From an uncultured Bacteriovoracaceae bacterium (lineage in GTDB: Bacteria > Bdellovibrionota > UBA1018), in assembly GCA_964364175.1 (NCBI GenBank), contig CAYILR010000002.1, positions 69,357 to 133,356 on the forward strand: a stretch of DNA of 64,000 nt, given 5' to 3'. The notes beneath the pieces are model-generated. The model was not told where the DNA came from and ran no database searches. It was given only the letters and a program-made list of their open reading frames with translations. Each line of letters opens with the position of its first letter. Positions within the stretch are counted from its first letter, which is position 1. Positions 1,809 to 50,657 of the stretch are shown here, piece after piece. The position numbers were made by a program, and so were the translations under genes.

Positions 1809-1827
1809 CAGCTCCTTGGGATTTTTC

Positions 1828-33914: not shown

Positions 33915-35024
33915 TTATAAACTAGCATCCCCGTCAAAAAGGGTGGGTTCCCAAACGATCGGTTGCGCCAATTCAAGCTCCAGTCCCGCAATCTGTGATC
34001 GATAAAAATAAGGCCAGCTTTCCAGCTGACGTCGATACGGTGCGGTTTTTTCAAGTGTAGTGCGAACCGTTCCATTGAATCCTACTACTTCCAGCATGTG
34101 GAATCGGTGGGTGCGAAACAGCAGAACTGCTCTTTGAATCACTTGATTGAGCACATCTGCAGTCTGCGAATCTGACTCACAGATGCTTTGAAAATCAACG
34201 AGTCGGATACGTTTCAATCCAAAACCCGGGTGATCTTGGCGGAAAAAAACTGCATAAGCAACTAATCGGCCGGCTTGCTCACAGGTAGCGACCCATGCCC
34301 GATTTTGATCAATTGCACGCTGAAAATGCTGAGTGAGAGCCTCGCGATCGCGTGAACCTAAAAGAATTTTTGATTTTTTCTGGAGCAGCTCCTTCCAAAA
34401 AACATCAAATTTTATGTCGAACGATTTGATCCATTGTATGCTCAAACCACCGGCTAGGCGTGCGCGACGTTCGGTTTTGCCCATCAGCTTTTCTGCAACT
34501 GAAATTCCGTGCTCTGCTAGGAAAGAAAAGGAAGAAAGAAATCCCAGATTTTTCTTTTTCAAAAAGCTTTTGAAAAATCCTTGTCGATCGAGAATCCAGA
34601 ATAGAGCTTGCTGGAAATTTTCCACCGGCATTTTTTTGTGCTTGAGCGCGAGATAGACTTGATCGGCCGGAGGACGCGCGGTGGTGTGGATCACCAGATC
34701 AACCCCAGGCTCTGAGAGGAGTTTATGAATCAACATCGTCGAATAGGTGCGATGTTCGGGAGCGACCACCCATGCGGTGGGGCAAGAGACTTTCAACTCG
34801 CGGCCGTTGAGAAAATATTTTGCAAAGTAGGTACCCACAGAGCCGACGATTTCGCCGCTGGGGGTTTCGAGTACATAGTTCACATCTGGCATCCGAGCTT
34901 CGGCGCCGAAGCTGGTCGGGGTTTCGTCGATCGAGGCAGGAGCTAGGCCATTTTCCGCTCCCAGTTTGAGGATTTTGGGGAAATCTGCTGGTGTAGCTTT
35001 TCGGAGTTGAACTTTCGTCTTCAT
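33915..35024 (-). CDS. GNAT/FemAB-like (Acetyltransf_6-type) protein; start moved to MKTKVQL to remove the overlap with the ATPase gene
   Basis: About 370 aa with a two-lobed layout typical of FemAB/CelD-like GNAT proteins found in polysaccharide loci. Family call is tentative. Confidence 0.35.
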   Translation of the reverse strand: MKTKVQLRKATPADFPKILKLGAENGLAPASIDETPTSFGAEARMPDVNYVLETPSGEIVGSVGTYFAKYFLNGRELKVSCPTAWVVAPEHRTYSTMLIHKLLSEPGVDLVIHTTARPPADQVYLALKHKKMPVENFQQALFWILDRQGFFKSFLKKKNLGFLSSFSFLAEHGISVAEKLMGKTERRARLAGGLSIQWIKSFDIKFDVFWKELLQKKSKILLGSRDREALTQHFQRAIDQNRAWVATCEQAGRLVAYAVFFRQDHPGFGLKRIRLVDFQSICESDSQTADVLNQVIQRAVLLFRTHRFHMLEVVGFNGTVRTTLEKTAPYRRQLESWPYFYRSQIAGLELELAQPIVWEPTLFDGDASL

Positions 35025-35031
35025 CGCGTCC

Positions 35032-36638: not shown

Positions 36639-37868
36639 TCAACTCAGCGTCGCCCACCGAACCATCCGATCCATGACTTTCATGCTGTCCCAGTAGGCGT
36701 CAAAGTTGTGCATTGAACCGATTTCGCAGAGGCGGGAGACGCCTAAGAGGGCGGCGGATTCGGTGAAGCGGCGTTTTTTCTCAGCGTCGAGAATTGCGAC
36801 TCCGATGGTTTGAATTTTCGGGGTGACCCACGGAAGTGCTTCGTCGAGGGATTTTACGGCTTTCACAAAAACTGATCGGTATTGCAAACCCTCGGGCAGG
36901 TCGGGTTTTTGATCAATCAAGATGGTGTACTGCAGATCAGCTGGGGCTTTGAGGTCTTTGTCCTGGGACAATCCGTAATCTGTGCGTGCGCGAAGAATAG
37001 CTGCTGAGTTGGCTTCTTCGATTTGTGTGAACGGACGAGTGTCTGCCATTCGCTTGAGTTCGACTTGTAGCAGATCGCAGAGGGGTTGCACTTCTTGGAA
37101 TGAACCTTCCACAAAAACTACATGAGGAGACGAGCAGGCTTGTTGATCGAAGGCTGCGAGATCGCGTGCGAGGGCTCGTACCAAAGTCGGGAGTTTGTCC
37201 TGGTTTTTGATTGCGTCGCGGTCCATCACGCAGAAGGAATACTTGGGTCCAAAAACCACATCCGTTGCGTGATCCATTCGAGGCAATGCGGTGACTGCAG
37301 CTACGGCATCTGCGCCCCCCCAAACGACTCGCAAATCCGAGACGGTGGAGAGTTGCTTGTTGAGTTCCAAGCGATCACTCGGGAACGTTACCCATGCGGT
37401 GGATTTCACGATGGGGTGTTGTTCGAAATCTTGGAAGATTTTGAGTAGAACGGAAAAAACTCCCACCGATCCGCTCGAGACTCGAATCAAATTAGCGTTC
37501 TTGCACATGGCCGATAGCGCCCATGAGAAAAATCCTAGGGTCGGAACGTTGCCAGCAATCCAATGCGTGGCAAGACCCGCAGGCGCTGCTCGCACTTGAA
37601 ATCCTGACAAAGGCAGAAACTGATCGAGCGCCAAGGCTTGATTGCCGAGTTGATTTTCCAATAATCGCTGTAGATTTTTTTTCGTCAGCCAGCTGGCCAA
37701 AAATGCGATTCCTGGAACCGTGGCGTAGTCACGCGAGATTAATTTTTTGCCGAGTTGATCCAAAAATTCGATGATCTCGGCTTCCGGCATCGTGCGCAGT
37801 GATTCTTGCGAAACTCGCAGACGTTTAGCGATTTCAGTAATTTCGGAAGGAGATTGAATTTTGATCAT
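36639..37868 (-). CDS. LuxC-like acyl-CoA/acyl-protein reductase (PF05893 family)
   Basis: 'HWIAGNVPTLGFFSWALSAMCKNANLIRVSS' parallels the LuxC 'AGNVP...K.SS' region. 4-bp overlap with the upstream LuxE-like gene. Confidence 0.65.
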   Translation of the reverse strand: MIKIQSPSEITEIAKRLRVSQESLRTMPEAEIIEFLDQLGKKLISRDYATVPGIAFLASWLTKKNLQRLLENQLGNQALALDQFLPLSGFQVRAAPAGLATHWIAGNVPTLGFFSWALSAMCKNANLIRVSSGSVGVFSVLLKIFQDFEQHPIVKSTAWVTFPSDRLELNKQLSTVSDLRVVWGGADAVAAVTALPRMDHATDVVFGPKYSFCVMDRDAIKNQDKLPTLVRALARDLAAFDQQACSSPHVVFVEGSFQEVQPLCDLLQVELKRMADTRPFTQIEEANSAAILRARTDYGLSQDKDLKAPADLQYTILIDQKPDLPEGLQYRSVFVKAVKSLDEALPWVTPKIQTIGVAILDAEKKRRFTESAALLGVSRLCEIGSMHNFDAYWDSMKVMDRMVRWATLS

Positions 37869-39019
37869 CCGATCACCCTCGACGCAGCTTGCACATCACC
37901 ACATCCACGCAACTCAGACGCTTCCACGCGCGAACGAAACTGAAAATACGTGCCCTTCTGCCCGCACTTGCAGTTATCCTCGCCGATCAAAGTTCCCACA
38001 TCATCCGTCAAAATCGCATGCCCCGGATAACTCGTGGGTAGAATACTCACGACCTCGATCAACCCCACCTGCCCGGGCTTCACGGGTTTTAAAGTGGTAA
38101 AATCCCGAATCACAACCTCCGCAAATCCGGGCGCATGCTTGTAACCTTGCGAGCAATCCAGAAAAATCACACCAACTTGTTCGGCCATTCCATAGAAATT
38201 TCGCACTTGAGTTGCAGGCATTCCAAAAACATCCGAGGCAGCTTGGGCAAAAACTGAATTGTTGACACTCATTTCGATGAGTTTTTTCCAACCCCCACCG
38301 TGTAGAAGCAATCCCTGGCGTGATGAAAAGGAAACTCCCAATTTCTTGAGCGGCAGAATCACATCCATCCACGCGCTGAACGTCATGCCCGCGATCAGGT
38401 ACTCCTGATCCCCGACTTCTTTGAAAAAAGCCCGAATCGCTTCGACATCCAACTCAGGCGTCGCAGTAGCAGACGCGGCCTTCATCGCGTAAACCATCTT
38501 GGAAGCAAACGGCGCCAATCCACGAATCACAGCATCACGCGCAGTGATCGAGTCCTGACTCTGCATCCGCGCAGAGGAATCCAAAACCAAAAAAGGGCGA
38601 CGCTTGGAGCCGATCACGGAAATCAAAGAACCCGCCAGAGCTTTGGTCTGACGAAACAAAGTGGGTTTATCTAAAAAGATTTTGCTGGGTTGAGAAGTGG
38701 ACGTCCCACTCGACTGCAGTACACGCGTCACTTGATCTTTGGGTACCAGGCAAAGCTCGTGTCCCTTGAACGCCGATACATGAAAATAAGGAATGTCGGC
38801 ATAATCATGGATGCGAGACGAATCCGTAAACCCGGATTTTTTCAAAAACCCGGCATACGCAGGCAAGACCGCTTGGTTCCTGCGAACGTGCTTTTCAAAA
38901 AGCGGCAGGAGTTTTTCCTTCTTGCCCCCAGACGAAGCCGACACCAACGCCTCCATGCCCGCCAGCACTTGGTCGATCTCAGTCTGGAGTTCTTGTTGAA
39001 GCAAATCCGTTTTCTCCAC
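37865..39019 (-). CDS. LuxE-like acyl-protein synthetase (PF04443 family)
   Basis: 'DIPYFHVSAFK...SSGTSTSQPSKIFLD', 'LLLHGGGWKKL' and 'LTDDVGTL' parallel LuxE 'DIPVFPTSVFK...SSGTNGLKSQVARD', 'IITGGGWKSY' and 'VTDDVGII'. Confidence 0.7.
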   Translation of the reverse strand: MEKTDLLQQELQTEIDQVLAGMEALVSASSGGKKEKLLPLFEKHVRRNQAVLPAYAGFLKKSGFTDSSRIHDYADIPYFHVSAFKGHELCLVPKDQVTRVLQSSGTSTSQPSKIFLDKPTLFRQTKALAGSLISVIGSKRRPFLVLDSSARMQSQDSITARDAVIRGLAPFASKMVYAMKAASATATPELDVEAIRAFFKEVGDQEYLIAGMTFSAWMDVILPLKKLGVSFSSRQGLLLHGGGWKKLIEMSVNNSVFAQAASDVFGMPATQVRNFYGMAEQVGVIFLDCSQGYKHAPGFAEVVIRDFTTLKPVKPGQVGLIEVVSILPTSYPGHAILTDDVGTLIGEDNCKCGQKGTYFQFRSRVEASELRGCGDVQAASRVIG

Positions 39020-39096
39020 AGCAAGCCTGACCGTACAACAGATAAATTCGTCTAATCAAGCGTTACTCCAGCTATTTTTGAATCATCACCAATCTA

Positions 39097-40065
39097 CTAC
39101 TGCATCTGATCCAGCCACAGAAGAGCGCCAGGAGTTTCCTTCCAAGCTCTCAGGGCCTCATCCACGTAAATCACCGCTTCTTCTCTGCTGCCCAGGGAGT
39201 ACGAATCCGGCCTCCACGGAGGAAGCTTGGACTTGCCTAGAAGATATTTTGGGACATGCACATTTCCTTGCACCGCTACTACAATTTGCTTCACTGCTTT
39301 TTTTGATTCCGAGCCCTGTTTTTTAAAAAGAAAAAGCGCCTTGTTAAACGCATGGAACGCACCAAAATCGTTTTTGTAGCGCCTGAGAATTTTCTCGACT
39401 TCATCCAGTTCGTTTTTGATGAGCAAGCAATTCACCAGCACATCTCGAAGTCCCTGATTGTCCTTGGGATTGAGTCGCAGGCAATCCTGATAATGAGTGA
39501 TGGCTTCCTTCTCACGACCCAGCTCCCACAAAAAATCAGCGAGGCTTGCTTTGGCCCTCATGTAGGGGCGGCTTTCGGTCATACCCCAAAAATGTCCCTC
39601 ATTTTCTTTGAAAAATTCCTCGCCCAGGTCTTTCTCTCCCGCCTCGACGGCGCGCTCAAAGCAAGAAAGCGCCTCCTCGGGTGTGCGCGAATCTTCACCG
39701 AGCATGATCCAAGCATCCGGTAGATGCGGATAAAGTTTCAAAGCCTGCTGGATGATTTTACGGCGTTGGCTCGACCGATCTTCCTCAAACGCATCATCCA
39801 TGAGGATCTGAGCTCGATCTCGATCCGACAGATCTTCGCGATCCTGGAACTCGGCGTTGATGTCGTCCATTTTCCGACCCATCAAGCTTTGCAAATACTG
39901 GTTGGCCTCCTCCATCGATAGATTTTTTGATTCAATCACCTTGCCGATATTTCCCAGCATCTGCTCCATTCCCCGACGAATTTTCGCTGGATTTACGGGA
40001 ACAGAGGTTTGAGCCATCAGCTCATTAACGGGGCAGGAATCATTGCGTCCCTGTTTCGTACTCAT
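39097..40065 (-). CDS. TPR-like helical repeat protein
   Basis: Repeated helix pairs ('AITHYQDCLRLNPKDNQGL', 'ALSCFERAVEAGEKDLG') and no catalytic motifs. Confidence 0.4.
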   Translation of the reverse strand: MSTKQGRNDSCPVNELMAQTSVPVNPAKIRRGMEQMLGNIGKVIESKNLSMEEANQYLQSLMGRKMDDINAEFQDREDLSDRDRAQILMDDAFEEDRSSQRRKIIQQALKLYPHLPDAWIMLGEDSRTPEEALSCFERAVEAGEKDLGEEFFKENEGHFWGMTESRPYMRAKASLADFLWELGREKEAITHYQDCLRLNPKDNQGLRDVLVNCLLIKNELDEVEKILRRYKNDFGAFHAFNKALFLFKKQGSESKKAVKQIVVAVQGNVHVPKYLLGKSKLPPWRPDSYSLGSREEAVIYVDEALRAWKETPGALLWLDQMQ

Positions 40066-40451
40066 GCATGAATCTCCTCGGCTTCATTTTCGGTTGGGTC
40101 AACGGTTTTTGTTCTGAGTAAATACTGTGCATGAAGTCGAGCCAGATTCAGGCCACGTGATGCGCATTGCTTCAAACTCAGAGTATTTTTGTAAGAAAGA
40201 TAGGTATCGGTAGTTTTCAATAAAGCTTCGGCCTTTGAAAAGGTAGTCTGAGTATCTTTTTCCATCTCAGCGACGAGGATGCGATTGCAATGCACTTCCT
40301 CTGCGGCTTGAGCTTGATCGAGATTGCTGATGATCGAGGACAAACTTGCCATGAGCTGCATGACGTCCTCATAGGTCAAGGCGGTGAGCCGATTCAAAAT
40401 CAGCTCTTGTTTCTCGATCACAGCGGCTCGGAGTTTCAACGGATCTGCCAT
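40062..40451 (-). CDS. hypothetical small protein (129 aa), translationally coupled to the TPR-like gene
   Basis: 4-bp overlap with the downstream gene on the same strand. Helical, no recognisable family. Confidence 0.35.
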   Translation of the reverse strand: MADPLKLRAAVIEKQELILNRLTALTYEDVMQLMASLSSIISNLDQAQAAEEVHCNRILVAEMEKDTQTTFSKAEALLKTTDTYLSYKNTLSLKQCASRGLNLARLHAQYLLRTKTVDPTENEAEEIHA

Positions 40452-40646
40452 AGTTTATGGGAAATACTGCGTTTCTTTGAAATTGACCAGGGGGTACCCA
40501 GAAAAAATCGGCCGTTCTTTAATCTGTGAGCACGGATTTGGAAGGTTTTCTACCAAATCGAAGGTCACAGACCCTTTGCAACCCCTCAAATGGAAGGATT
40601 CCTTCCAAATCACAGGCCACAGATTTTCTTACCTTCCGAAAATTTA

Positions 40647-42158
40647 TCAAAAATCTGTAACTTGTTTTCTAAGTTCACCCTTGAGTACTTTGCCCGAACC
40701 TGTTTTCGGCAAAGCCTCCAGGATCTGCACCTTTTTGGGCTGCAGATAGGGCGGCAAGGCCTTCTTCAAGTATTCCAAAAACTGCTCCATCACAAATCCT
40801 TCTTGCACACAAACGAACGCGGCCACGGCCTCACCCAAAAGCTCATCCGGCATCGCGACAACGGCACATTCCTTCACAGTCTCGAATTTGCGCATCGCCG
40901 TCTCAACATCCAACGCACTCGCCCGATTGCCTGCGCACTTGAGGATATCGCTTTTTCGGCCCTGAAGGAACAGATACCCATCTTCGTCGAGCCGGCCCAA
41001 ATCACCGGTGTGCAGCCATCCGTCCGAGAAAACCTGCGTGGTTCGGGCTTCGTCTCGGTAATAACCTTGAGAAATATTGGCTCCTTGTGCGGTGACTTCT
41101 CCATAACCGCTTGGAGCGTCATCATCGGGCAAAATGCGAATTTTTACACCCGGAATAGCCTTCCCCGCCGAACCCAGTTTGTTCTTCAATTCCTCGGGAG
41201 GCAAAATCGTCAGCCGAGCCGTCGCCTCCGTTTGGCCATACATCACATAAATCAGCGCTCCCGGAAAAACCGGTTCCAACTCCAGAATATCCGCCTGCGC
41301 GAGTTTCCCACCCGCCTGCAGCAAGTACCGCAAAGGAATCGGAGGTTTCTTCTTTAAACTCGAATTTTTGAGAAGAATCTGAAACGTCGAAGGCACACCC
41401 GCAAAACCCGTGCAAGGCACCTTGACCATTTCCTCGAGAACACGATCGGCGAACATAAATTGATTGTTGATCACGATGCACGCACCTGCTTTGAGGTGTG
41501 TGTGCAAAATCGAAGCACCGAAAGAATAGCAGAACGGCAGCACATTCATCACGACGTCGCTCGGGAGAATCGGCGCCGCCTGCAAAATTGCCTGCGTGTT
41601 GGCCAAGAGGTTTCCGTGACTGATCACCACACCCTTGGGATCGCCGGTCGATCCTGACGTAAACAGAATCAATGCTGGATCAGTGTCCAGTACGTCTGCA
41701 GCAGGCTCCGTTGATGTTTTGGAATTCGACTGAACAAAAAGTGCTTCCAACCTCTGAACCGGAACACCCAACGACTCCAAAGCCTGAGCATTCCGTCCCG
41801 CCACCAAATCCGAAACTAAAAATAGCTTCGGCTCCGCCAGCTTCACCACCGCCCGAATTTTTTCCGCCGAAGAATCCGCCGGCAAAGGCACGCAAACTAA
41901 CCCCGAACGCATGAGCGCCAGGTAGCTCACCACCCAGGCAAACGAATTTTCACCCTGCAGACAAACAAGACTACCCGGCTGAATTCCTTGCTTTTGAAAA
42001 TATGAAGAAAGACTCTCAACCCGCTGAATCAGCTCCGCACGCGAAATCACCTGATCTTTAATTCGAAGCGCGGGAGAGTTCCCCGGAATCGAATCTTCGC
42101 TGAGAATAGTTTCTGCGAAGTTCATTCGCTGAGTCCGTCCATTTTCCTTCCCTCTCAA
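40647..42158 (-). CDS. AMP-dependent synthetase/ligase, DltA-like stand-alone adenylation enzyme (acyl/aminoacyl-carrier-protein ligase)
   Basis: 'LILFTSGSTGDPKGVVISHGNLL' AMP-binding motif I, cf. DltA '[22 protein letters not shown]'. 503 aa with no condensation or thioesterase domains. Confidence 0.8.
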   Translation of the reverse strand: MRGKENGRTQRMNFAETILSEDSIPGNSPALRIKDQVISRAELIQRVESLSSYFQKQGIQPGSLVCLQGENSFAWVVSYLALMRSGLVCVPLPADSSAEKIRAVVKLAEPKLFLVSDLVAGRNAQALESLGVPVQRLEALFVQSNSKTSTEPAADVLDTDPALILFTSGSTGDPKGVVISHGNLLANTQAILQAAPILPSDVVMNVLPFCYSFGASILHTHLKAGACIVINNQFMFADRVLEEMVKVPCTGFAGVPSTFQILLKNSSLKKKPPIPLRYLLQAGGKLAQADILELEPVFPGALIYVMYGQTEATARLTILPPEELKNKLGSAGKAIPGVKIRILPDDDAPSGYGEVTAQGANISQGYYRDEARTTQVFSDGWLHTGDLGRLDEDGYLFLQGRKSDILKCAGNRASALDVETAMRKFETVKECAVVAMPDELLGEAVAAFVCVQEGFVMEQFLEYLKKALPPYLQPKKVQILEALPKTGSGKVLKGELRKQVTDF

Positions 42159-42478
42159 CCCGCAGTTTTTAACTTCAAAACATCTTTTTTCTTGAAGCGA
42201 AAGTCTTTGCCATTGGGTTTGGTGAACTTGATTTTCTTTTCTTTCACTTTTCTGCGCATCGTGGATTCAGAGATCCCCAAAAGCTGACAGGCTTCCGCCA
42301 AGGTAATTGTGTCTCCACTCAAAAACAATTTAGAAGAATCGGTAATATCCAACCCGATGACATTGGATGATTTATCCAGGCGAACAATCATTCCGTCCTT
42401 AAAAAAACTGCGGGCCTCTATTTCATCCTTAAAATCGATCGAAATATAATCGACGTCGGGTCGGTGATAAACTTTCAC
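42155..42478 (-). CDS. DUF2283-like protein with a C-terminal HTH (putative antitoxin)
   Basis: N-terminal 'MKVYHRPDVDYISIDF' is typical of DUF2283. C-terminal 'TLAEACQLLGISESTMRRKVKEKKI' is HTH. 4-bp overlaps on both sides. Confidence 0.5.
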   Translation of the reverse strand: MKVYHRPDVDYISIDFKDEIEARSFFKDGMIVRLDKSSNVIGLDITDSSKLFLSGDTITLAEACQLLGISESTMRRKVKEKKIKFTKPNGKDFRFKKKDVLKLKTAG

Positions 42479-42729
42479 GGGGCACCTCCTTCGTGAGTTG
42501 AGAATCTGTGCATCACAGTCAATATTTCATAAACCTGATCCAATGCTCGGACTGCAACGACAGCGATTTGATTGTCGGTACGACTGGAAATTAACTTATA
42601 ATAAATCACTTTGTCTTGAGACTGCTGGATGGTTCCACCAGGACTATTCATAACTTCCTCGACATCTTGAGTAGATATTTGCCTTGCCTGCATTCGTTCA
42701 ACAGCATGTGAAGAGTAGACGAGACGCAC
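42475..42729 (-). CDS. DUF4258-like small protein (putative toxin partner of DUF2283)
   Basis: 84 aa starting 'MRLVYSSHAVERMQARQIS', typical of DUF4258, immediately upstream of the DUF2283 gene. Confidence 0.5.
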   Translation of the reverse strand: MRLVYSSHAVERMQARQISTQDVEEVMNSPGGTIQQSQDKVIYYKLISSRTDNQIAVVAVRALDQVYEILTVMHRFSTHEGGAP

Positions 42730-42785
42730 TTTGTTAGTGTTCGATTTTTTTCACAACTTGTCAATAACTATTTTTAAATAGTCAT

Positions 42786-43112
42786 TCAATTACCTAGGCG
42801 CTCATCCGACGTCCCCGTCAACGCCTCGGACAGCGAATGTCCAAAGTGATTGCTCAGTTTTTTCAGATGAATCACGGTGTCGGTGGGATATGCCCCGTGC
42901 ATCCATCCATGGAGAACTGAGGGTGAGCAACCAGCGATCTTGCAAGCTTCGCGGATCGTTAGGCTCTTTTCACTCAAAAGCTTCTGGAGAAAAATACTCA
43001 GCGGCGTTCGGAATTCAAAGCGATGCACCCTGGGTTCTGCGACCCTCCAAGGAGTTATAAAACTTAAAAGCATTTCGTCTTTGGTTAGAATCCTGAGTTG
43101 TGGAGTTTTCAT
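42786..43112 (-). CDS. small HTH DNA-binding protein
   Basis: 'LTIREACKIAGCSPSVLHGWMHG' is HTH-like. Lies in the low-GC segment. Confidence 0.4.
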   Translation of the reverse strand: MKTPQLRILTKDEMLLSFITPWRVAEPRVHRFEFRTPLSIFLQKLLSEKSLTIREACKIAGCSPSVLHGWMHGAYPTDTVIHLKKLSNHFGHSLSEALTGTSDERLGN

Positions 43113-43154
43113 TTACGTTACCGAACTTGCTTCTCTCCCAAAATCTCCGCTAAC

Positions 43155-43805
43155 TCAACTGATGTTCACATTTCCGAACAACTCATGGGAAATAATGATC
43201 GGAGAATTTGTGGGTCGATATTCCTCCGTACAACTTGACGCATTCACATATTGAGTTTTGCCCAAGGTCACCTGACCATATCCATGATGGAGATGCCCGA
43301 AAACATGGATGTGAGGTTGAATTTTTTGAACTACTTTAAGCAATTCCTCGCACCCACAATGTTCACTAGTAATGACAAAATCTAAAATTCCATGCGGCGG
43401 ACCATGAGTCACGAGAATATCTACCTGTTCGGGAATTTGCCCCCATTTTTTTGCGATCGCCTTGCCTCGATCGACATTAAAAGCCCAATTACAAAATGTG
43501 GGCTGCCAAGGTGAGCCAAAGATCCGAGTAGATTGAATCGTGATTTCCTGATCGATCAAAACTGTCACATCAAGTCCCATGATTTCGCGTGCAAGCGTTT
43601 CCTGCTCCTCAAAAAGCCAGTCGTGGTTACCGGGAACAAAAACCTTGTGTGGATGTGGCAAGGCGCGAAACTCTTTAGAAAATGTAATGACTTCCTGGAG
43701 AGTACCCATACTTGTTGCATCACCAGCATGAATCAAGAGATCCCCCTCTGGGATTTTCATTTTGGAGAGCTGGTTGTGAGTATCTGAAATACAAATGATT
43801 TTCAT
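43155..43805 (-). CDS. calcineurin-like metallophosphoesterase
   Basis: 'ISDTHN', 'GDLLIHAGD', 'VPGNHD' and 'THGPPHG' motifs. Coding sequence is AT-rich relative to the locus. Confidence 0.8.
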   Translation of the reverse strand: MKIICISDTHNQLSKMKIPEGDLLIHAGDATSMGTLQEVITFSKEFRALPHPHKVFVPGNHDWLFEEQETLAREIMGLDVTVLIDQEITIQSTRIFGSPWQPTFCNWAFNVDRGKAIAKKWGQIPEQVDILVTHGPPHGILDFVITSEHCGCEELLKVVQKIQPHIHVFGHLHHGYGQVTLGKTQYVNASSCTEEYRPTNSPIIISHELFGNVNIS

Positions 43806-44779
43806 AAAATCCTTCCGGATGATTTTCTGAACAAAATTTTCTTGGAATCAAAATCATAGTCAACCAGCTTCCCCTGAAATAAATATTTCGTTTTTTGTAA
43901 ATCCTCACGATAATTTCCAGTCAGCTCCCAACTAATCAGTCGAAGGCATTTGCTTTCATCCACGAATTTAAACTCATTCATCGAACTATGCTCAAAATAA
44001 TAGGTGGGAATTTCAAAATCATAATCATGCTCAAGCATTGCGAAAGTATGTGAGAGCAACCCATTTTCATAACGTTGATGAGAGCCTCCGCTTCCTCCTT
44101 TGGTCCATGCGATGTGATCTCCTTGATCAATAAAGAAATACTGCTGCCAGGGGTTTCGATGATCCCAATAGTTAAAGGGTTTAGGTGTATTGGGATAAAC
44201 CCTCTCGTAGGTTGCACTCACTCTCGGAAGATGGATTTCTTTGAGCCGTTTTTCCCAACGTTTTTTTGCTGCGCTCTTTGTGAGTCGAATCTCGTCTCCA
44301 GTCTCTTCATCGTAGTCGTACTTACACATTTCTTTAAATAGAGCCACCACATCCGGGTAATATTCGAATGCTTGAGATTGAAAAATAGCATCCGTGATTT
44401 GATGCTCAATTTCTCTCTTAGGATCAGTTTTCCAATTATACGTTTTTCTGGGATATTCACGCTCTTTGAATATTTTCTCTAATTCATCTGAACTATAATA
44501 ACTGCGCTCTACCCGGTCCCGGGCTTCTTCTTCAACTTCGCTGACCAGTAAATGATTTGTGATTTGCAAGTGAGAGGGGTCTTCGTATAATTTTTCATCC
44601 AGATGCTCCTCGGTCATCATCACAAGACAACATTTGTATTGATGCTCGGAGAAAATTTTAGCTAGAGCAGAGTGAGTATCGTCCTTAACCCCTTTTGAAT
44701 ATTTGGAGAAGTAGTCGAGTGATTTATTGAATACTAGGTTTTTTATGATGCTAGTCTTGGTTTTTTCAAAAGTGAACAT
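43802..44779 (-). CDS. hypothetical protein (325 aa), translationally coupled to the metallophosphoesterase
   Basis: 4-bp overlap with the downstream metallophosphoesterase gene. AT-rich. Contains 'TKGGSGGSHQ' glycine-rich loop. No family recognised. Confidence 0.4.
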   Translation of the reverse strand: MFTFEKTKTSIIKNLVFNKSLDYFSKYSKGVKDDTHSALAKIFSEHQYKCCLVMMTEEHLDEKLYEDPSHLQITNHLLVSEVEEEARDRVERSYYSSDELEKIFKEREYPRKTYNWKTDPKREIEHQITDAIFQSQAFEYYPDVVALFKEMCKYDYDEETGDEIRLTKSAAKKRWEKRLKEIHLPRVSATYERVYPNTPKPFNYWDHRNPWQQYFFIDQGDHIAWTKGGSGGSHQRYENGLLSHTFAMLEHDYDFEIPTYYFEHSSMNEFKFVDESKCLRLISWELTGNYREDLQKTKYLFQGKLVDYDFDSKKILFRKSSGRIL

Positions 44780-44971
44780 TTGAGCAGTATAGAGGGTTTT
44801 TTCTGTGTTGGAATGGATTTTCAGAAGTCTGAACAGACAGCAAAACTGGCCGCAGAAATCAAAATCAAAGAAATTCTCTTTTTGGATTATTTACGTGAGA
44901 TTGATCGACGCGAGTTGTACAAAATTCGCACTTCAGGACGTAGCTATATTCTCAATCGGTCCAGAAGCAAC

Positions 44972-45208
44972 TCAGCTCAACCCACGCTCCGACAAAACAC
45001 CGTAGATGGCTTTAACGCTGTCCATTTTCATGATCTCTTCGACTTGAAACTCGACGGTGAACTCGGTCTGAAGAGCGTTCACCAAATTCAGATGCCCGAG
45101 TGAATCCCAGCCCGCGACATGTTCGGGCAAAACGTCATCGTTGTACTCAAACTTGGCTTCGGGGAACGCGGTCTCGAATGCTTTTTTTACTTTCTCGTTC
45201 ATTGCCAT
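44972..45208 (-). CDS. acyl carrier protein (phosphopantetheine-binding, DltC-like)
   Basis: 78 aa with 'AGWDSLGHLNLVNALQTEF', an ACP serine attachment motif. Confidence 0.75.
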   Translation of the reverse strand: MAMNEKVKKAFETAFPEAKFEYNDDVLPEHVAGWDSLGHLNLVNALQTEFTVEFQVEEIMKMDSVKAIYGVLSERGLS

Positions 45209-45229
45209 AAATCTTCCTTTTAAGTCAGC

Positions 45230-45952
45230 TTAGGTCAGCGCTAGTCCGCCATCCAAAACCCAGTTGCTGCCGGTCGCGTACGATCCGGTCTCGCCCAGCA
45301 AGGTCACGACTACTTTCGCGATTTCTTCCGGCTTGCTCAATCGTTTCAACGGAATTTTGCGCGCAATCATCGCCATCAGAACCTTGTTCATCAGATCGGT
45401 CTCCACAATCCCGGGGCTGATCGACACGGCGCGAATCCCGCGATCGGCGTACTCTGCCGCAATCGATTGGGTGAAATGCATAAGCGCCGCTTTCATCGCT
45501 GCGTAGGCCGTCATTTTTGCCGACGGACGCATGCCTGCGACTGACGTCATATTGATGATGATGCCACTTTTTTGGGTGATCATTTTGGGGAGCAATTCGC
45601 GGGTCAAAAAGTACGGTGCGCGGAACAAAACTTCGATTTCTTGGTCCACATCGGCCATCGGCATCGTGTGGGTATCTGCGATCTTCATGAGGCCTGCATT
45701 GTTCACTAACGCGACCAGCTCGTCGGGTTGATTGCGAATCATTTCAACGGCTTCCTGGAGTTGTCCACGATTTGCCAAATCACATGTGAATGGTGTGAAT
45801 TGCTGTGGATAAGTCTCGGCGAGCTTTTGGAGCAGGTCGTGCCGTCGCGCCAGTCCGTACACATGAAATCCAGCCGCCACAACTTGGTGAACACAGGCCA
45901 AACCAATGCCGCTTGTCACCCCGGTAATCACCACACTTTTTCGTGCATTCAT
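45230..45952 (-). CDS. SDR-family oxidoreductase (FabG-like 3-oxoacyl-ACP reductase type); start taken at MNARKS
   Basis: 'VVITGVTSGIGLA' with 'NNAG' and 'YAAMKAAL' (the Y-x3-K catalytic motif). Confidence 0.8.
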   Translation of the reverse strand: MNARKSVVITGVTSGIGLACVHQVVAAGFHVYGLARRHDLLQKLAETYPQQFTPFTCDLANRGQLQEAVEMIRNQPDELVALVNNAGLMKIADTHTMPMADVDQEIEVLFRAPYFLTRELLPKMITQKSGIIINMTSVAGMRPSAKMTAYAAMKAALMHFTQSIAAEYADRGIRAVSISPGIVETDLMNKVLMAMIARKIPLKRLSKPEEIAKVVVTLLGETGSYATGSNWVLDGGLALT

Positions 45953-45978
45953 GGCCCCAGCATTATACGGTTTCGGGC

Positions 45979-46743
45979 ATGTCCGCAACCCGCTATCTCA
46001 CTCTCAGCATCGATGATGGCTACCCGGGTGACCTGAGAACCATCGAGATGCTCAAGAAGTATGGCTTGAAGGCGACTTTCTATGTTCCGGGGCTGAATCC
46101 CGAGCGGCCGAAACTGCCCGATGCACAGGTTCGTGAGATTGCGCAGGATCCTGATTTTGAAGTGGGTGGCCATACCTACAGCCATACTTCGCTGCATGTG
46201 AAGAGCGATGCTGTTGCGTACGAAGACATCGTCAGAGGCAAAGATTGGCTCGAGAACGTGATTGGGAAGAAAACCGTTTCGTTCTGCTATCCCCAGGGCA
46301 AATTCAACTCCCGGACTCCGGGGCTTGTAGAAAAAGCCGGATATCTGGGTGCGCGGACTTGCATGCTCAACTTGAATAGCTATCCAAAAACTCCATTTCT
46401 CTGGGGTGCGAGTACTTTGGGGTATTCGTTGCCACCGCTGATCCAAATTAGACACGCACTGATTGAGGGAAATTTTGAGGGAACTTGGAATTACTTCAAA
46501 AAATTTCGCCTCACTCAGGATTGGGCCCAGCACTTTCGGATCGCTCTGGACGATGTAGAACAAGACGGCGGGATCGCTCATCTGTTTTTTCACACCTGGG
46601 AAATCGAGGCTCTGGATCAGTGGAATTTGCTGGATGGGATTTTGAAAGAAATTTCGACCCGTAAGTCGCTTAAACGGGTGACAAACGGAGAGCTTTTTGC
46701 CAAATTTCATTCGGAATATGCAAAAGGCAGTCTCTCGACTTGA
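45979..46743 (+). CDS. polysaccharide deacetylase (NodB-homology, CE4)
   Basis: 'LTLSIDDGYP' is motif 1 (D-D). 'GGHTYSHTSL' is motif 2 (H-x4-H). 'CYPQG' follows. Confidence 0.8.
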   Translation: MSATRYLTLSIDDGYPGDLRTIEMLKKYGLKATFYVPGLNPERPKLPDAQVREIAQDPDFEVGGHTYSHTSLHVKSDAVAYEDIVRGKDWLENVIGKKTVSFCYPQGKFNSRTPGLVEKAGYLGARTCMLNLNSYPKTPFLWGASTLGYSLPPLIQIRHALIEGNFEGTWNYFKKFRLTQDWAQHFRIALDDVEQDGGIAHLFFHTWEIEALDQWNLLDGILKEISTRKSLKRVTNGELFAKFHSEYAKGSLST

Positions 46744-48007
46744 GAAATTATTTCAAATCCTGATTTCGATTGGACTCGCTGCCGGTTTTTACTATGTTGC
46801 GCGCTACCAGAGCCCGCCTGGAAAAGTTTTTCTCCTTGGAAAAAACGTCCTTTCGCTAGCCGCATTGGGAATTTGGGTGGGGCTACTGCTCCTTTGGATT
46901 CTTTTTCTCACCCGAAGTCACAAGAAAATCAGTATCCGCTGGCGTGCTGCGATCTACGCTCTGTTACTCGTCGAGTGCACACCCTACCTTTTTAGTTTTG
47001 GAATCATCTGGCCTCATCACTGGCCCCGAAGTTCACCCAACGACATGCCCGGGCACGAGTGGTGCTATCCCGGATATATTTTCCTGAGACAAGAGTACAA
47101 CGTTTGCGGAAAGCAAAATGCTGAGGGTCGGTACGATCAGGAATTTTCGCTAACACCTGCGCCCGGAGTATACCGCGCCGCTTATCTGGGCAACTCGCAC
47201 GTCGAGGGACGATCGATTCCACTGGAGAAAAAAGCGTCCAAGCTGGCGCAAGCCTCGCTCAATCAGCAATTGACGAGCCATCGATTTGAAATCATGGATT
47301 TCTACATTCCGGCGATGCGTGCGTTGGAAATTCTCACTACCACTCGGGGCGATTTGCAAAAGCACGGCGTTCAACATGTCATTTTAAAATCGATGGGCGT
47401 CGAGGACGAATTACTGAAACCTGTCTCTGCTGAAGACGCGCCTCCGACCGGACTTTATCAAAACGCTTTTCTTCAACGCCTGATTCACGTTCCGTTTTCG
47501 AATCTGCTCTCCCTTCTCGCTTGGAACGGATTACGAATGTACATCGAACTCTACAATCCTGGAGTCGCAACGATTTCGTCCGAACCCGCTCCAACACCAC
47601 AGCTCAAGGAGTGGGTGCAATCCCAGTGCGGAATTGAAAATCCCAGAATGATTCATAAACTCGCCGTTTATCTTCAGGGAATTCAACGATCCTATCAAAG
47701 TTTCAAGTCTGTTGATCTAGGTTCACAAAAGATGACGATCGTTCAAATTCCTCAACTCGAACCCTTGATTCTCTCGAATGCAGTTCTCAATAAATACGAA
47801 ACCTGCCAAACGGAAATTCATCAGCGAGCATTTGAGGAGGCCTTCGCTGGATCCAAAACTGTTAATTTTGTCGATGTCACTCCGATGTTGGCTCAATATC
47901 ACACTCATGTTTCAGAAATTTATTTTCCAGCAGACAGACATCTGAATCAGTTGGGCAATCAGATTGTTGGTGAGGCTATCGCTCAGGGGACAAAATGGTA
48001 TTTCTAA
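46697..48007 (+). CDS. DltD/AlgJ-like putative SGNH-fold acyl-transfer accessory protein with an N-terminal TM anchor (tentative)
   Basis: Single N-terminal TM region and then a soluble domain. Overlaps the MBOAT gene start. Family call is by context. Confidence 0.35.
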   Translation: MPNFIRNMQKAVSRLEKLFQILISIGLAAGFYYVARYQSPPGKVFLLGKNVLSLAALGIWVGLLLLWILFLTRSHKKISIRWRAAIYALLLVECTPYLFSFGIIWPHHWPRSSPNDMPGHEWCYPGYIFLRQEYNVCGKQNAEGRYDQEFSLTPAPGVYRAAYLGNSHVEGRSIPLEKKASKLAQASLNQQLTSHRFEIMDFYIPAMRALEILTTTRGDLQKHGVQHVILKSMGVEDELLKPVSAEDAPPTGLYQNAFLQRLIHVPFSNLLSLLAWNGLRMYIELYNPGVATISSEPAPTPQLKEWVQSQCGIENPRMIHKLAVYLQGIQRSYQSFKSVDLGSQKMTIVQIPQLEPLILSNAVLNKYETCQTEIHQRAFEEAFAGSKTVNFVDVTPMLAQYHTHVSEIYFPADRHLNQLGNQIVGEAIAQGTKWYF

Positions 48008-49158
48008 CCTCCTGGTTCTTTGCATTTCTGCTGGTTGCAGTTTTGACGTACATTTTTCTCCCGCGTGCTTGGAGAAAATACTGGCTCCTCGCTATCAGCA
48101 TGGTTTTCCACGGACACTTCGCAGGGCCGGCTGGAGTTTTGCCCATTGTGATTTTGGGTGTGACTGTCTATCTCGCTGCGCTCGCCATTGAAAAATGGAA
48201 AATTGCCACGCCGATGTGGACTGTAGGCGCTGTCTGTATATTAGCGTTGATTTACTATAAATACACGGGGTTCTTGTTAGAACTCGTAGGAATCTCCCCA
48301 GAAAAAACTCCCGTCGCACCGCTTGCGATTTCATTTTTTACTTTTGAATTCGTCCACTACCTGATCGAAGTCAAAAAAGGCGGTCCTGCTCTCAAGAACC
48401 CGATCGATTTTTGGTTATTCGCCGTATTTTTCCCCACCATTGCCAGCGGACCGATCAAACGCTATCGAGATTTTCAAGCGCAGCTCGATGCGCTCCCTAA
48501 AAAGAAAATCACAGCGCCTGAGATTCACGAAGGACTTTATCGAATTACCTCGGGGCTTTTCAAAAAACTCATCATTGCCGAGTGGGCCGTCGATCACATC
48601 CATCGTATCGAGCCCTGGTTGCACGATTCGTCCCTTTCTTCCGGATATCTTTGGGCCTTGGTCGGCTTGCAAACCACTCGCATCTATATGGATTTTGCTG
48701 GTTACAGTGACGTGGCAATTGGAATTGCGCTGCTATTGGGAATTCGCGTGCCCGAAAACTTTAATTGGCCGTACATAGCACACAACCTGAGTGACTTCTG
48801 GACACGTTGGCATATCTCACTCAGCTCGTGGATTCGAGACTATATCTATATTCCACTGGGTGGCGGCCGTGTCTCGGCCCCACGCAAGGTTTTCAATGGC
48901 TTCAGCGCCATGGTTCTTTGTGGAATTTGGCATGGACCGGCTTTGCATTTTGCTGCATGGGGAATTTATCATGGTTTGGGATTGGCGCTGCAAGAACCCA
49001 TTTCTAAGATAGTGCGTCCTCTTTTCCCCTCCGAAAAAATCTACCGGAGTTGGACGCGCGCATGGACTTTTCTCTTTGTGGCACTCGGTTGGTTAATCTT
49101 CTTTTATGAATGGAGCGATTTGAAATGGATTTTGGCAAGAATGATCGGTCTGAGCTAA
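47995..49158 (+). CDS. MBOAT-family membrane-bound O-acyltransferase (DltB/AlgI-like)
   Basis: 'FTFEFVHY', 'IASGPI' and 'WHISLSSWIRDYIYIPLGG' with the conserved His are MBOAT hallmarks. Confidence 0.85.
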   Translation: MVFLTSWFFAFLLVAVLTYIFLPRAWRKYWLLAISMVFHGHFAGPAGVLPIVILGVTVYLAALAIEKWKIATPMWTVGAVCILALIYYKYTGFLLELVGISPEKTPVAPLAISFFTFEFVHYLIEVKKGGPALKNPIDFWLFAVFFPTIASGPIKRYRDFQAQLDALPKKKITAPEIHEGLYRITSGLFKKLIIAEWAVDHIHRIEPWLHDSSLSSGYLWALVGLQTTRIYMDFAGYSDVAIGIALLLGIRVPENFNWPYIAHNLSDFWTRWHISLSSWIRDYIYIPLGGGRVSAPRKVFNGFSAMVLCGIWHGPALHFAAWGIYHGLGLALQEPISKIVRPLFPSEKIYRSWTRAWTFLFVALGWLIFFYEWSDLKWILARMIGLS

Positions 49159-49193: not shown

Positions 49194-50657
49194 ATGTTGA
49201 AAAAATACCAATCAAAACTTTGGGTTTTCCTTGGACTAGGTATTTGCACGATCCTTCTCGCGAGCTGGATCCAACTCGCTCTGCATAAACGACTCTGGAC
49301 TGATGAGGGAAATGAAATTTTGTCGAATTGCCCTCAGGGATGGCTATCGTTAGCGCAAGGCGCGGACACACAATGCAGTCCCTCTCCGCTCTATTATTTC
49401 TTTCTTAAGTTAACCGTTTTACCGATCCATGTTTTTGATCAAACTATTTTGCTGAGTTATCGGAGTGTTTCTCTGGGGGCAGCTTTTGCTTTAGGAGTGG
49501 TATTTTTTTTATATCTAGGCTTTCGCTGGGGTTGGGCAAGCGGGTTGATTGGTCTTTTGGCCTTGGCTCAACAGGGGTTGTTTCACCAATACGCGGCTGA
49601 AAATCGACCTTATATGCTTTGGCTTTTGGTGTTTTTTGTTCATCTTTGTTGTTTTTCAGATCTTTGGACAACGGCCCAGGACAGGACTCGGACATTAAAA
49701 TCCGCAGGGTTTGTTGCTCTATCCTCATTGGCGCTGACTGCTATTGCGGGACCAGGGATGCTCCAGGTTTTTTGTAGCGCGGCTAGCGTGCTGCTATTCG
49801 CACTTGTTTTTCGCCAAACTCACCGATTTCGCTCATGGTGGCGCTTTTTGGCCATTGTAACTCTGGCTTGTTTAGGAATAGGAGTCTTCTATTCTCTAAA
49901 AAGCTGCAAATATGAAAACGCAGGTGATTTCGATTTACTCTATACTCGCGATATCAATCTGGTTCTGGGTGTAATTCGCCTATTTTTGCCTAAAAGCGTT
50001 TTTCGCTTCCCTGATACTGCTTTGGTCTTCAATGGATTCTTTTTATTTGGCGTCTGGACGGCTTTGCGCCGCCTACTCAAACGACAAGAAAAGCTGGAGG
50101 CAGGTGGTATTCTGGCTTACCTCTCACTGTTTCAACTCGGATTGGCATTTCCAATAGCGATACTTATAGCTGTGAAACACTACTATTTTCTGCAGAGAGT
50201 TTTTATTTTTATTTTGATCCCATGGGCGATTTTGGCGTCCTATGGCGCCCGTGAATTACTTCACTTAGGTTGGGTTCAAAAATTCAAGGTTCTTCCCCTG
50301 CTTCTCCTGATTCTTTCGATCCCTCGCGTGGTGACATTGGAAGCAAATGCCAGGACTCCTTTTTATGACATCGAATGCGATATGATTCAGGACGTCCAGT
50401 TTACTTCGATTTATCTAGATCGGTTGCCATATCCAGATGTTCAAGCCAACGTTTTAGTGGATTTAGATCGCGCCTACCGAAAATGCGGATATGATCCAGC
50501 AAAGGCCACAAAAGCTTCTCTTTTGATCCATTTTGAGCCTACCTTGCCACAGCTTTATCGTTTAGAAAAACTAAGCGCATCCTCACAGCCATTGCCCAAG
50601 TGGATTTCTCTAGAGCAGTGCGGAAAACAGATTCGCGATATACCTCAGAGGTACTGA
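49194..50657 (+). CDS. GT-C (ArnT/PMT-like) polytopic membrane glycosyltransferase candidate
   Basis: TM1 then 'RLWTDEGNE' (DE motif). More than 10 TM. First of three tandem paralogous genes. Confidence 0.5.
   Translation: MLKKYQSKLWVFLGLGICTILLASWIQLALHKRLWTDEGNEILSNCPQGWLSLAQGADTQCSPSPLYYFFLKLTVLPIHVFDQTILLSYRSVSLGAAFALGVVFFLYLGFRWGWASGLIGLLALAQQGLFHQYAAENRPYMLWLLVFFVHLCCFSDLWTTAQDRTRTLKSAGFVALSSLALTAIAGPGMLQVFCSAASVLLFALVFRQTHRFRSWWRFLAIVTLACLGIGVFYSLKSCKYENAGDFDLLYTRDINLVLGVIRLFLPKSVFRFPDTALVFNGFFLFGVWTALRRLLKRQEKLEAGGILAYLSLFQLGLAFPIAILIAVKHYYFLQRVFIFILIPWAILASYGARELLHLGWVQKFKVLPLLLLILSIPRVVTLEANARTPFYDIECDMIQDVQFTSIYLDRLPYPDVQANVLVDLDRAYRKCGYDPAKATKASLLIHFEPTLPQLYRLEKLSASSQPLPKWISLEQCGKQIRDIPQRY

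Follow-up and report, generated by a model that had tools for sequence, protein, structure and literature searches.

Does a gene cluster that contains an adenylating ligase, an acyl carrier protein (ACP), a membrane-bound O-acyltransferase (MBOAT) plus an SGNH-fold partner, together with LuxE- and LuxC-type enzymes, encode one acyl relay or more than one pathway? The question is raised by a 64-kb stretch (hereafter the window) of a Hainich groundwater metagenome contig assigned to an uncultured Bacteriovoracaceae bacterium, in which a first-pass annotation had recognized a four-part Dlt-like set merged with LuxE/LuxC. Open reading frames (ORFs) exist for all eight of the genes that it named, and they fall into two divergent blocks: a short-chain dehydrogenase/reductase (SDR) through LuxC on the minus strand, and, encoded on the plus strand, a NodB-family deacetylase, the SGNH protein, the MBOAT and three membrane proteins. 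Our analysis suggests that the locus is probably made up of two independent glycan-decoration modules of known type, placed back to back in a mosaic polysaccharide island. By analogy with a described pathway, module A (36639-45952; SDR-ACP-ligase-LuxE-LuxC) is probably a tetronate-type cassette feeding a cytoplasmic, probably N-linked, acylation. Module B, the MBOAT-SGNH pair, probably acylates an extracytoplasmic glycan. Substrates, products and acceptors are inferred throughout.

Judged by their sequences, all five proteins of module A, each encoded on the minus strand, are intact members of their families. The SDR (45230..45952) is FabG-like (adh_short, 166.7 bits), resembles the other cassette genes in its GC content of 0.534 and would act as a ketone or aldehyde reductase on the ACP-bound acyl group. 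The 78-residue ACP (44972..45208) scores 20.1 bits for PP-binding, just below the cut-off of 20.8; its phosphopantetheine site reads WDSLGH, containing the DSL serine motif, and it can be aligned with the ACPs of about 30 LuxE-cassette loci, which have the signature WDSxGH in common. The LuxE-type acyl-protein synthetase (37865..39019) and the LuxC-type acyl-thioester reductase, of the aldehyde-forming kind (36639..37868), are encoded by genes that overlap by 4 bp, and both calls withstood a check with hidden Markov models (PF04443, 187.8 bits against a cut-off of 24.9; PF05893, 231.2 bits against a cut-off of 21). LuxE matches the LuxE chain 7xc6_E in the PDB at 69 bits, and its Cys373 (C373), part of an RGCGD motif and 11 residues from the C-terminus, is invariant in 29 homologues. 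The QQAC catalytic-cysteine motif of LuxC is kept in the alignment to the solved LuxC 7xc6_A. The equivalog models for true LuxC and LuxE score far under their cut-offs (107 against 750 and 67 against 550 bits).

The ligase (40647..42158) is a stand-alone ANL adenylating enzyme in which Pfam recognizes both AMP-binding (224.4 bits) and the C-terminal domain (62.6 bits). It had been called DltA-like, a description that its scores do not bear out. The DltA models TIGR01734 and NF003417 reach 184 bits, against cut-offs of 560 and 476, and rank only 20th to 21st, after acyl-CoA ligases; the best NCBIfam matches are a long-chain-fatty-acid CoA ligase (302 bits) and an exosortase-associated ligase (270 bits), these too under their cut-offs. 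Among PDB sequences DltA (112-125 bits) trails the LgrA adenylation domain (196 bits), oxalyl-CoA synthetase (188 bits) and malonyl-CoA synthetase (167 bits). Over the two comparisons, fatty-acyl, oxalyl- and malonyl-CoA ligases and a nonribosomal peptide synthetase adenylation domain all stand nearer to it. The likeness to oxalyl- and malonyl-CoA synthetases is weakly suggestive of a short dicarboxylic acid as substrate. The ACP almost certainly carries a modified acyl group and not D-alanine, and the view already taken in the first-pass annotation, that this is not an ordinary D-alanylation operon, is upheld.

The gene set of module A is a conserved unit elsewhere. LuxE homologues number 1197 and range from Myxococcota to Asgard archaea; 80 LuxE-anchored metagenome loci (886 kb) were searched by tblastn with every protein of the region. 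The ligase lies immediately upstream of LuxE in 72 of the 80 loci and LuxC immediately downstream in 71; the search picked up an ACP in 39 loci and an SDR in 35, always in the order (SDR)-ACP-ligase-LuxE-LuxC. An MBOAT was found in a single locus and the SGNH partner in none of the 80; NodB likewise appears once. Locus L105 has the sole MBOAT, 7 kb from LuxE and upstream of the cassette ACP by about 4 kb; it is long, ends in FIYFQF and belongs to the acetyl-CoA type. Because the ligase and ACP track LuxE and LuxC, while the MBOAT and SGNH genes do not, this gene-neighbourhood comparison contradicts a single Dlt-like relay and, with it, the proposed merger of a four-part Dlt-like set with LuxE/LuxC.

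The closest LuxE relatives, about 49% identical, are from Myxococcales and lie in compact GFO/IDH/MocA-SDR-ACP-ligase-LuxE-LuxC cassettes with DegT and hexapeptide transferase genes beside them. In the window, too, the ACP and the ANL ligase are upstream of LuxE on the same strand and in the order seen in relatives, here split by insertions. The place of the alcohol-forming reductase is taken by the SDR, with a gene directly upstream of that for the ACP; L166 and L168, the closest cassettes, have the same arrangement. Four of the loci most like the window by LuxC instead carry an iron-containing alcohol dehydrogenase (Fe-ADH) between ligase and LuxE (L091:8871-9959, L097:6192-7274, and also L095 and L098); none was found in the window. 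Locus L091, from uncultured environmental bacteria, reads Hexapep-ACP-ligase-Fe-ADH-LuxE-LuxC, which we take to be the order of Vibrio cholerae rfbK-L-M-N(-O). When the neighbouring ORFs of the 80 loci were clustered and the recurrent families confirmed by Pfam, the cassette was found repeatedly beside genes for DegT aminotransferases (16-20 loci), PglD/NeuD-type or LbH N-acyltransferases (15 loci), dTDP-glucose dehydratase, GT2 and GT4 glycosyltransferases and PglC-like initiating transferases.

The survey also brought out variation within the cassette itself. A sub-type of about 16 loci (L103-L113, L122-L125, L147, L152, L162, L164) has a split transketolase (N and C subunits) between SDR and ligase, and in about nine loci an MBL-fold hydrolase lies there too, which suggests a different acyl chemistry. 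Another sub-type has a methyltransferase.

The known system on which we base the function of module A is that of V. cholerae O1, where VC0248-VC0252 are tetronate genes (PMC3441752) that serve the N-acylation of perosamine with 2,4-dihydroxybutanoate (PMC3441752, PMC12208996, PMC9915646). According to a passage of PMC12208996 that cites Morona et al. 1995, the RfbL ligase attaches 2,4-dihydroxybutanoate to CoA or to the carrier RfbK; wbeM is an Fe-ADH and wbeN a LuxC/LuxE fusion (PMC9915646), and knockout of the homologous ligase abolishes O1 antigen (PMC3441752). Like the window, rfbK-L-M-N-O (wbeK-O) combines a dedicated carrier, an ANL ligase, LuxE/LuxC and an alcohol-forming reductase in a polysaccharide locus. 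The window differs in having separate LuxE and LuxC proteins and not one 825-aa fusion, an SDR in place of the Fe-ADH, no adjacent transferase, and seven unrelated genes that interrupt the set. An ACP, a 3-oxoacyl-ACP reductase, an AMP-dependent synthetase, luxE and luxC are also conserved in Aeromonas group II flagellin glycosylation islands (98 strains; PMC7874193), and the same families occur in the flagellin islands of about 71-80 Enterobacteriaceae strains (PMC4875605). These islands share all five gene families with the window, including the FabG-like SDR, and hold them as a block beside sugar-biosynthesis genes. They decorate flagellin with nonulosonic-acid glycans, whereas the island in the window lacks pse/leg and flagellar genes and looks exopolysaccharide- or O-antigen-type (Wzy, GT-C, GT87). 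For both V. cholerae and Aeromonas, the likeness rests on descriptions of the genes and not on direct protein comparison.

Based on analogy with the proposed V. cholerae O1 RfbK-N pathway, the ligase would act on a small carboxylic acid, for which a dicarboxylic or hydroxy acid is plausible, adenylating it and joining it as a thioester to its dedicated ACP. LuxE would then activate the remaining free carboxylate, as an acyl-AMP and subsequently as a thioester on its near-C-terminal cysteine, and pass it to LuxC, which would reduce it to the aldehyde with NAD(P)H. The SDR would reduce the aldehyde or a keto group to the alcohol, in place of the Fe-ADH of the closest cassettes. Finally, a cytoplasmic transferase would move the hydroxyacyl group from the ACP to an amino sugar, for which the cytoplasmic NodB deacetylase could supply the free amine. 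This scheme is supported by the intact catalytic residues and by the ligase being nearer to oxalyl- and malonyl-CoA synthetases than to DltA.

The nearest candidate for the last step is a hexapeptide-repeat (LbH) acyltransferase (32786..33904, plus strand; Hexapep, 37.2 bits), which by sequence could be the cytoplasmic enzyme that moves the ACP-borne acyl group to the sugar. Its NCBIfam likenesses are to LacA, WbbJ, WcaF and the NeuD family, all under cut-off, and it is 26-30% identical to the cassette-adjacent LbH transferases of L164, L104 and L091. As for the sugar, the amino-sugar genes of the window (two DegT and GFO/IDH/MocA) lie 13-32 kb away, none of them directly adjacent to the cassette.

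Module B (45979-49158 and downstream) centres on a membrane-anchored SGNH-fold protein and a short MBOAT, both on the plus strand. The MBOAT (47995..49158, 387 aa; PF03062, 93.5 bits) has more than 7000 homologues, mostly of about 398 aa and 45-48% identical, and His273 and His313 (H273, H313) are invariant in 28 of them. It matches DltB in the PDB at 116 bits, with aligned ranges that put His313 opposite DltB His336, presumably the catalytic histidine. Long AlgI/PatA-type MBOATs score higher than the solved DltB (186-243 bits by phmmer). The NCBIfam DltB model covers the protein from end to end (residues 5-369 to positions 5-376 of 380) at 198 bits, under its cut-off of 375. We rejected this match as a sign of Dlt function, as DltB was the sole MBOAT model to match and no AlgI or PatA model did, which makes it non-discriminating.

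The SGNH protein (46697..48007, 436 aa) is predicted to have three N-terminal helices and an extracytoplasmic catalytic domain with Ser167, Asp413 and His415. On its own it gave only a sub-threshold Pfam ALGX match and no meaningful match among PDB sequences. Close homologues were three only, P0242 being 61% identical, and phmmer over 1.8 billion representative proteins recovered 84 remote ones. In a 51-sequence alignment, Gly165, Ser167 and His415 (G165, S167, H415) are invariant and Asp413 (D413) nearly so; 44 of the 51 sequences match Lipase_GDSL_2 and 31 match ALGX. The profile made from these relatives matches AlgJ (4o8v, 7e-12), AlgX (2e-8) and PatB1 (1e-3) and has no DltD match. An earlier AlphaFold2 model from 3 sequences (pLDDT 42) was discarded; the one built from 51 remote homologues (pLDDT 77.8, pTM 0.77) resembles GDSL/SGNH esterases, with Foldseek TM-scores of 0.6-0.7 to the targets. 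The neighbour of the MBOAT is, from these data, a membrane-anchored SGNH protein with a Ser-His-Asp triad. The AlgJ half of its earlier description as DltD/AlgJ-like is borne out by fold and by the AlgJ/AlgX profile matches, while the DltD half is not. It would serve the MBOAT as acyl-acceptor transferase.

Pairs of MBOAT and SGNH proteins have been characterised as a class, in which an acyl group passes from acyl-CoA through the MBOAT to a tyrosine shuttle, the SGNH protein and the polymer (PMC12148441). According to this 2025 study of PatA/PatB, acetyl-CoA-type MBOATs have two extra C-terminal helices that end in an FxYxxF motif with the acyl-shuttle tyrosine, and the short DltB relies on the microprotein DltX for this motif. 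A carrier protein is used by Dlt only, and non-Dlt MBOAT/SGNH pathways are said to lack a DltX-like microprotein (PMC12148441). PatA/PatB, AlgI/AlgJ/AlgX and WssH/WssI resemble module B in their adjacent or overlapping genes for an MBOAT and a membrane-anchored SGNH protein, in the MBOAT histidine and the Ser-Asp-His triad, in the AlgJ/AlgX profile likeness and in the lack of a dedicated carrier among the relatives of the window pair. The window MBOAT differs from theirs in being about 100 residues shorter and in lacking both the two extra helices and the C-terminal FxYxxF.

How unusual this lack is can be judged from a census of 85 relative loci, made among the matches listed. A profile search with the MBOAT alignment gave, among those matches, generic long MBOATs 33-41% identical, and left the close family unsampled; the long proteins served for the motif census and as a negative control for neighbours. 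A long MBOAT (441-553 aa) with a canonical fused FxYxxF was present in 76 loci and one with a fused variant, PIYLQF or FIYLQY, in 2. In 6 loci a short MBOAT is accompanied by a separate microprotein of 36-57 aa that ends in FIYVSF, FIYVAF, FIYVNF or FVYVMF (L082:2451-2597, L083:12411-12575, L170:8411-8575, L171:8408-8581, L173:9188-9298, L029:10865-10978), and the remaining locus was truncated by a contig end. Among the matches listed, no complete relative locus lacks the motif, which is fused in 78 of the 84 and encoded on a microprotein in 6, and the window pair is the only complete locus without it. When all 64 kb were scanned in six frames, no ORF with FxYxxF or a looser variant at its end came to light, nor, between 44 and 55 kb, any small helix-containing ORF with a near-terminal tyrosine. 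L082, at 57% identity the closest relative whose 3' end is complete, has a microprotein gene that overlaps the stop codon of the MBOAT gene; here 35 bp separate that stop from the next gene. Possible reasons are a shuttle gene elsewhere in the genome, decay of the module and a relay of a different kind.

The donor for module B is most likely an acyl-CoA, by analogy with its carrier-less relatives and with the class described in PMC12148441. Seven loci of the short-MBOAT family, the whole of our short-MBOAT neighbourhood census, contain neither an ACP nor an ANL ligase within 6-10 kb; they comprise P0001, the P0003 loci, P0084, P0101, P0005 and P0045. The L172 fragment is too short to count as a further case. 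The order and overlap of the SGNH and MBOAT genes recur in the relatives L082 and L172. Working in the manner of PatA/PatB or AlgI/AlgJ/AlgX, the pair would carry acetyl or another short acyl group from acyl-CoA across the membrane and leave it as an ester on an extracytoplasmic glycan.

The relatives of module B also deserve mention for their own sake. They present a three-gene set of short MBOAT, SGNH protein and single-helix DltX-like microprotein, without DltA or DltC, and the short-MBOAT family has thousands of members. We found no description of such a set, that is, of a large MBOAT family with its shuttle on a separate DltX-like microprotein and no Dlt ligase or carrier, in the literature searched. 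The SGNH partner in the window has three predicted N-terminal helices, compared with one in the 403-406-aa partners of other short MBOATs. Within its residues 1-105 (window 46697-47010), the outer end of helix 1 reads GFYYVARYQS, and all five homologues that extend over the N-terminal region share Tyr37. Helix 1 (GFYYVARY) was considered as a fused DltX-like shuttle and rejected, as the motif does not fit FxYxxF and the L082 homologue has the same helix together with a separate microprotein. Any tie between helix 1 or Tyr37 and the missing shuttle is pure speculation.

The MBOAT-SGNH pair is preceded by the NodB-family polysaccharide de-N-acetylase (45979..46743, plus strand; Polysacc_deac_1, 79.8 bits), which has intact DD and HxxxH motifs and no signal peptide. 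NodB is conserved with neither module, being present in one of the 80 cassette loci and absent from the L172 pair. Downstream, the three plus-strand ORFs all encode polytopic membrane proteins with 8-9 predicted helices. The first two, 49194..50657 (about 8 helices) and 50600..52069 (about 9), have no Pfam match at E<=10 and no PDB match, or none that is meaningful in the second case; from the ENA gene call on a sister assembly, L001, the second probably starts at about 50657. The third (52066..53880) is a PMT/ArnT-type GT-C glycosyltransferase (PF02366 PMT, 31.8 bits against a cut-off of 22.7). For this ORF, too, the PDB sequences gave no meaningful match. It is the only one with a match to a GT-C family, and pairwise BLASTP among 49194-50657, 50600-52069 and 52066-53880 found no similarity; of the three GT-C paralogs named earlier, only 52066-53880 could be confirmed as a GT-C. 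NodB and SGNH genes overlap by 47 bp, SGNH and MBOAT genes by 13 bp, and the last two membrane-protein genes overlap as well; the overlapping stop and start claimed for this stretch holds at these junctions and not after the MBOAT, where there is the 35-bp gap. From their packing, it is plausible that the six co-directional genes from NodB to 53880 form one operon, and the MBOAT-SGNH pair is probably co-transcribed with the three polytopic membrane proteins. Promoter and terminator scans returned counts at chance level and so give no operon evidence, and an Rfam scan of the window found nothing.

The assembly of this stretch calls for one comment. In the sister assembly (L001:12331) there is a 10-N scaffold gap at window position ~50325, inside the ORF 49194-50657, and the reading frame across ~50325 rests on a single assembly.

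Several observations weigh against the two-module interpretation. The modules are immediately adjacent, and the innermost ATG starts, those of the SDR and NodB genes, are divergent and 26 bp apart, which would allow shared regulation; NodB has a cassette-like GC content of 0.498. An MBOAT of DltB length that follows the DltB model end to end may, as far as its sequence goes, be compatible with use of a carrier protein. No ACP-acyl transferase adjoins the cassette, the hexapeptide candidate being 2.7 kb off, on the other strand and weakly similar, and the DegT genes are 27-32 kb from the cassette. The V. cholerae tetronate pathway is itself a sequence-based proposal with genetic support. Since module B has no shuttle motif, the standard PatA/PatB acetyl-CoA mechanism cannot simply be assumed for it.

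The alternative with which the locus was first read is a single Dlt-like relay, in which the ligase loads the ACP, LuxE, LuxC and the SDR tailor the acyl group, the short MBOAT accepts it from the ACP and passes it across the membrane, and the SGNH protein esterifies the glycan of the downstream transferases. We consider this quite unlikely, even though all four Dlt-type roles are found within 9 kb, the MBOAT has the length of DltB, lacks extra C-terminal helices and fits the DltB model from end to end, the divergent starts are close together, and Dlt offers a precedent for a carrier-fed MBOAT (PMC12148441). Like DltX-A-B-C-D, the window pairs an SGNH protein with an MBOAT that is short and has no fused shuttle, and a stand-alone ligase and a small carrier are encoded nearby. 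The ligase, however, is not DltA-like, the carrier is of the cassette family, and no relation of the SGNH protein to DltD was detected; all Dlt models score under their cut-offs, the dlt gene order is not kept, and the genes occupy opposite strands, with foreign insertions parting ligase from ACP. None of the seven short-MBOAT relatives has an ACP or ligase nearby, and among the LuxE loci the single MBOAT is of the long acetyl-CoA type and the SGNH partner does not occur. A canonical relay of this kind is further argued against by the absence of the shuttle motif, because Dlt needs DltX and neither a DltX-like microprotein nor FxYxxF is present in the window. A non-canonical version, in which the short, shuttle-less MBOAT was recruited to the cassette, takes the LuxE/LuxC-tailored hydroxyacyl group from the ACP and, with its SGNH partner, esterifies a periplasmic glycan, strikes us as more doubtful still. 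If true, it would represent a carrier-protein-fed MBOAT relay outside teichoic-acid D-alanylation and without a DltX-type microprotein.

The missing shuttle could also mean that module B is decaying or incomplete, with its shuttle microprotein lost and the pair inactive or reliant on a distant gene, so that only module A functions. This we think unlikely, though less so than any form of Dlt-like relay. In its favour, FxYxxF is present in every complete relative among the matches listed and not in the window, and the 35-bp spacing stands where L082 has its overlapping microprotein gene. Against this, both ORFs are full length and keep the family-invariant residues (H273 and H313; S167, D413 and H415), the overlapping gene arrangement is preserved, and the contig, 186 kb long in NCBI, runs past the 64-kb window that the shuttle scan covered. 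Least probable of all, and in our view very improbable, is that module A has nothing to do with glycans and is a fatty-acid-to-aldehyde or -alcohol pathway (wax, lipid or signalling) as in LuxCDE, merely situated within the island. In lux operons LuxC and LuxE do serve as components of the fatty-acid reductase, NCBIfam ranks a long-chain fatty-acid CoA ligase first for the ligase of the window, and both PMC7874193 and PMC4875605 speculate about a 'liposugar'. Yet the LuxC and LuxE equivalog scores are far under cut-off, there is no LuxD thioesterase or luciferase, the cassette stands beside DegT, N-acyltransferase, glycosyltransferase and sugar-dehydratase genes in dozens of loci, and in V. 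cholerae the ligase knockout costs the cell its O1 antigen (PMC3441752).

If the two-module interpretation holds, the locus adds one more case of two decoration modules that are already known, and nothing is left of the new system claimed. Each half has been described before, so that the asserted novelty fails for either; only their juxtaposition is rare. The ACP-ligase-LuxE-LuxC cassette is very widespread, and an environmental example of its SDR variant strengthens the case for working out its chemistry. The window pair without a tyrosine shuttle matters because the 2025 mechanistic model treats the shuttle as universal (PMC12148441).

The cassette in the window is interrupted by seven unrelated genes, five between ACP and ligase and two between ligase and LuxE, all on the minus strand. 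The five begin, next to the ACP, with a 325-aa hypothetical protein (43802..44779; GC 0.390, compared with about 0.51 in the cassette) that has no match in Pfam, NCBIfam, PADLOC or PDB and whose gene overlaps the next by 4 bp. That next gene encodes a metallophosphoesterase, the phage-defence candidate PDC-S10 (43155..43805; Metallophos, 47.3 bits; PADLOC, 289.9 bits over the full length; GC 0.435). It is followed by three small genes identified through Pfam, for an Xre-like helix-turn-helix (HTH) protein (42786-43112, GC 0.489), a DUF4258 protein (42475-42729) and a DUF2283+HTH_17 protein (42155-42478); apart from the HTH gene, their GC contents are 0.443 and 0.404. A function as toxin-antitoxin or regulator set is likely for the trio (42155..43112), in which PADLOC finds a weak mad1 match. 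Four of the five genes in this insert have a GC content of 0.39-0.44, the HTH gene being the exception, against 0.49-0.53 in the cassette.

Between ligase and LuxE lie a 129-aa hypothetical protein (40062-40451), with no Pfam match, and a 322-aa tetratricopeptide repeat (TPR) protein (39097-40065; TPR_14, 48.7 bits). This pair sits in the slot held by the Fe-ADH in the nearest cassette relatives (L091, L097), and no homology was found between it and the genes that fill the same slot elsewhere. The 325-aa protein, the phosphoesterase, the TPR protein and the 129-aa ORF were found in none of the 80 LuxE-anchored loci. From GC content and family matches it appears that the toxin-antitoxin and defence-candidate insertions came later and split the cassette, which makes it a mosaic; the ligase had looked 'stand-alone' in the first-pass annotation because mobile or defence genes have been absorbed into the cassette. 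The 195 bp that separate the ligase from the 129-aa ORF contain an imperfect inverted repeat (40521-40625; 35-nt arms, 74% complementary, 35-nt spacer).

Beyond LuxC, the next minus-strand gene (35032..36507) encodes an ATPase with an HTH domain, the phage-defence candidate PDC-S27 (ATPase_2, 51.8 bits; HTH_20; PADLOC, 571 bits over the full length), which is a neighbour of the cassette and not part of it. The 131 bp that separate the LuxC stop from this gene's start contain a perfect 16-nt direct repeat, GATTTGGCCGAAAATA, at 36524-36539 and 36580-36595, 56 nt apart, which could be an operator pair or an insertion scar. Further on, a 376-aa protein (33915..35045, minus strand) has a weak GNAT signal (Acetyltransf_9, 20.6 bits, below the cut-off of 25), no NCBIfam or PADLOC match and no relatives in the cassette loci; a role as acyltransferase is possible but unsupported.

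Polysaccharide-island content extends across the whole 64 kb, with GT2 and GT4 glycosyltransferases, three Wzy_C proteins, a UDP-sugar dehydrogenase, GFO/IDH/MocA oxidoreductases, two DegT aminotransferases, epimerases, a sugar C-methyltransferase, GT87 and the PMT-type GT-C. The GT87 protein, also GT-C (53857-55062), is encoded on the opposite strand to 52066..53880. The island also contains about ten unassigned polytopic membrane proteins, at least 9 of them of 435-545 aa and without a Pfam match at E<=10 (1768-3396, 6445-8058, 14913-16520, 28933-30390, 49194-52069, 55079-56716, 59702-62548), a concentration that is unusual for one sugar island. Two of the Wzy_C proteins, which are O-antigen polymerase/ligase-like (27597-29030 and 62625-63941), are 46% identical at a distance of 34 kb, and the third (25502-26821) is more distant in sequence; there may be more than one polymer encoded here. 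Inside the island there is also a gene for a HipA-like kinase toxin (20079-21062; HipA_C, 143.5 bits), which is a further sign of the insertion of mobile or selfish genes.

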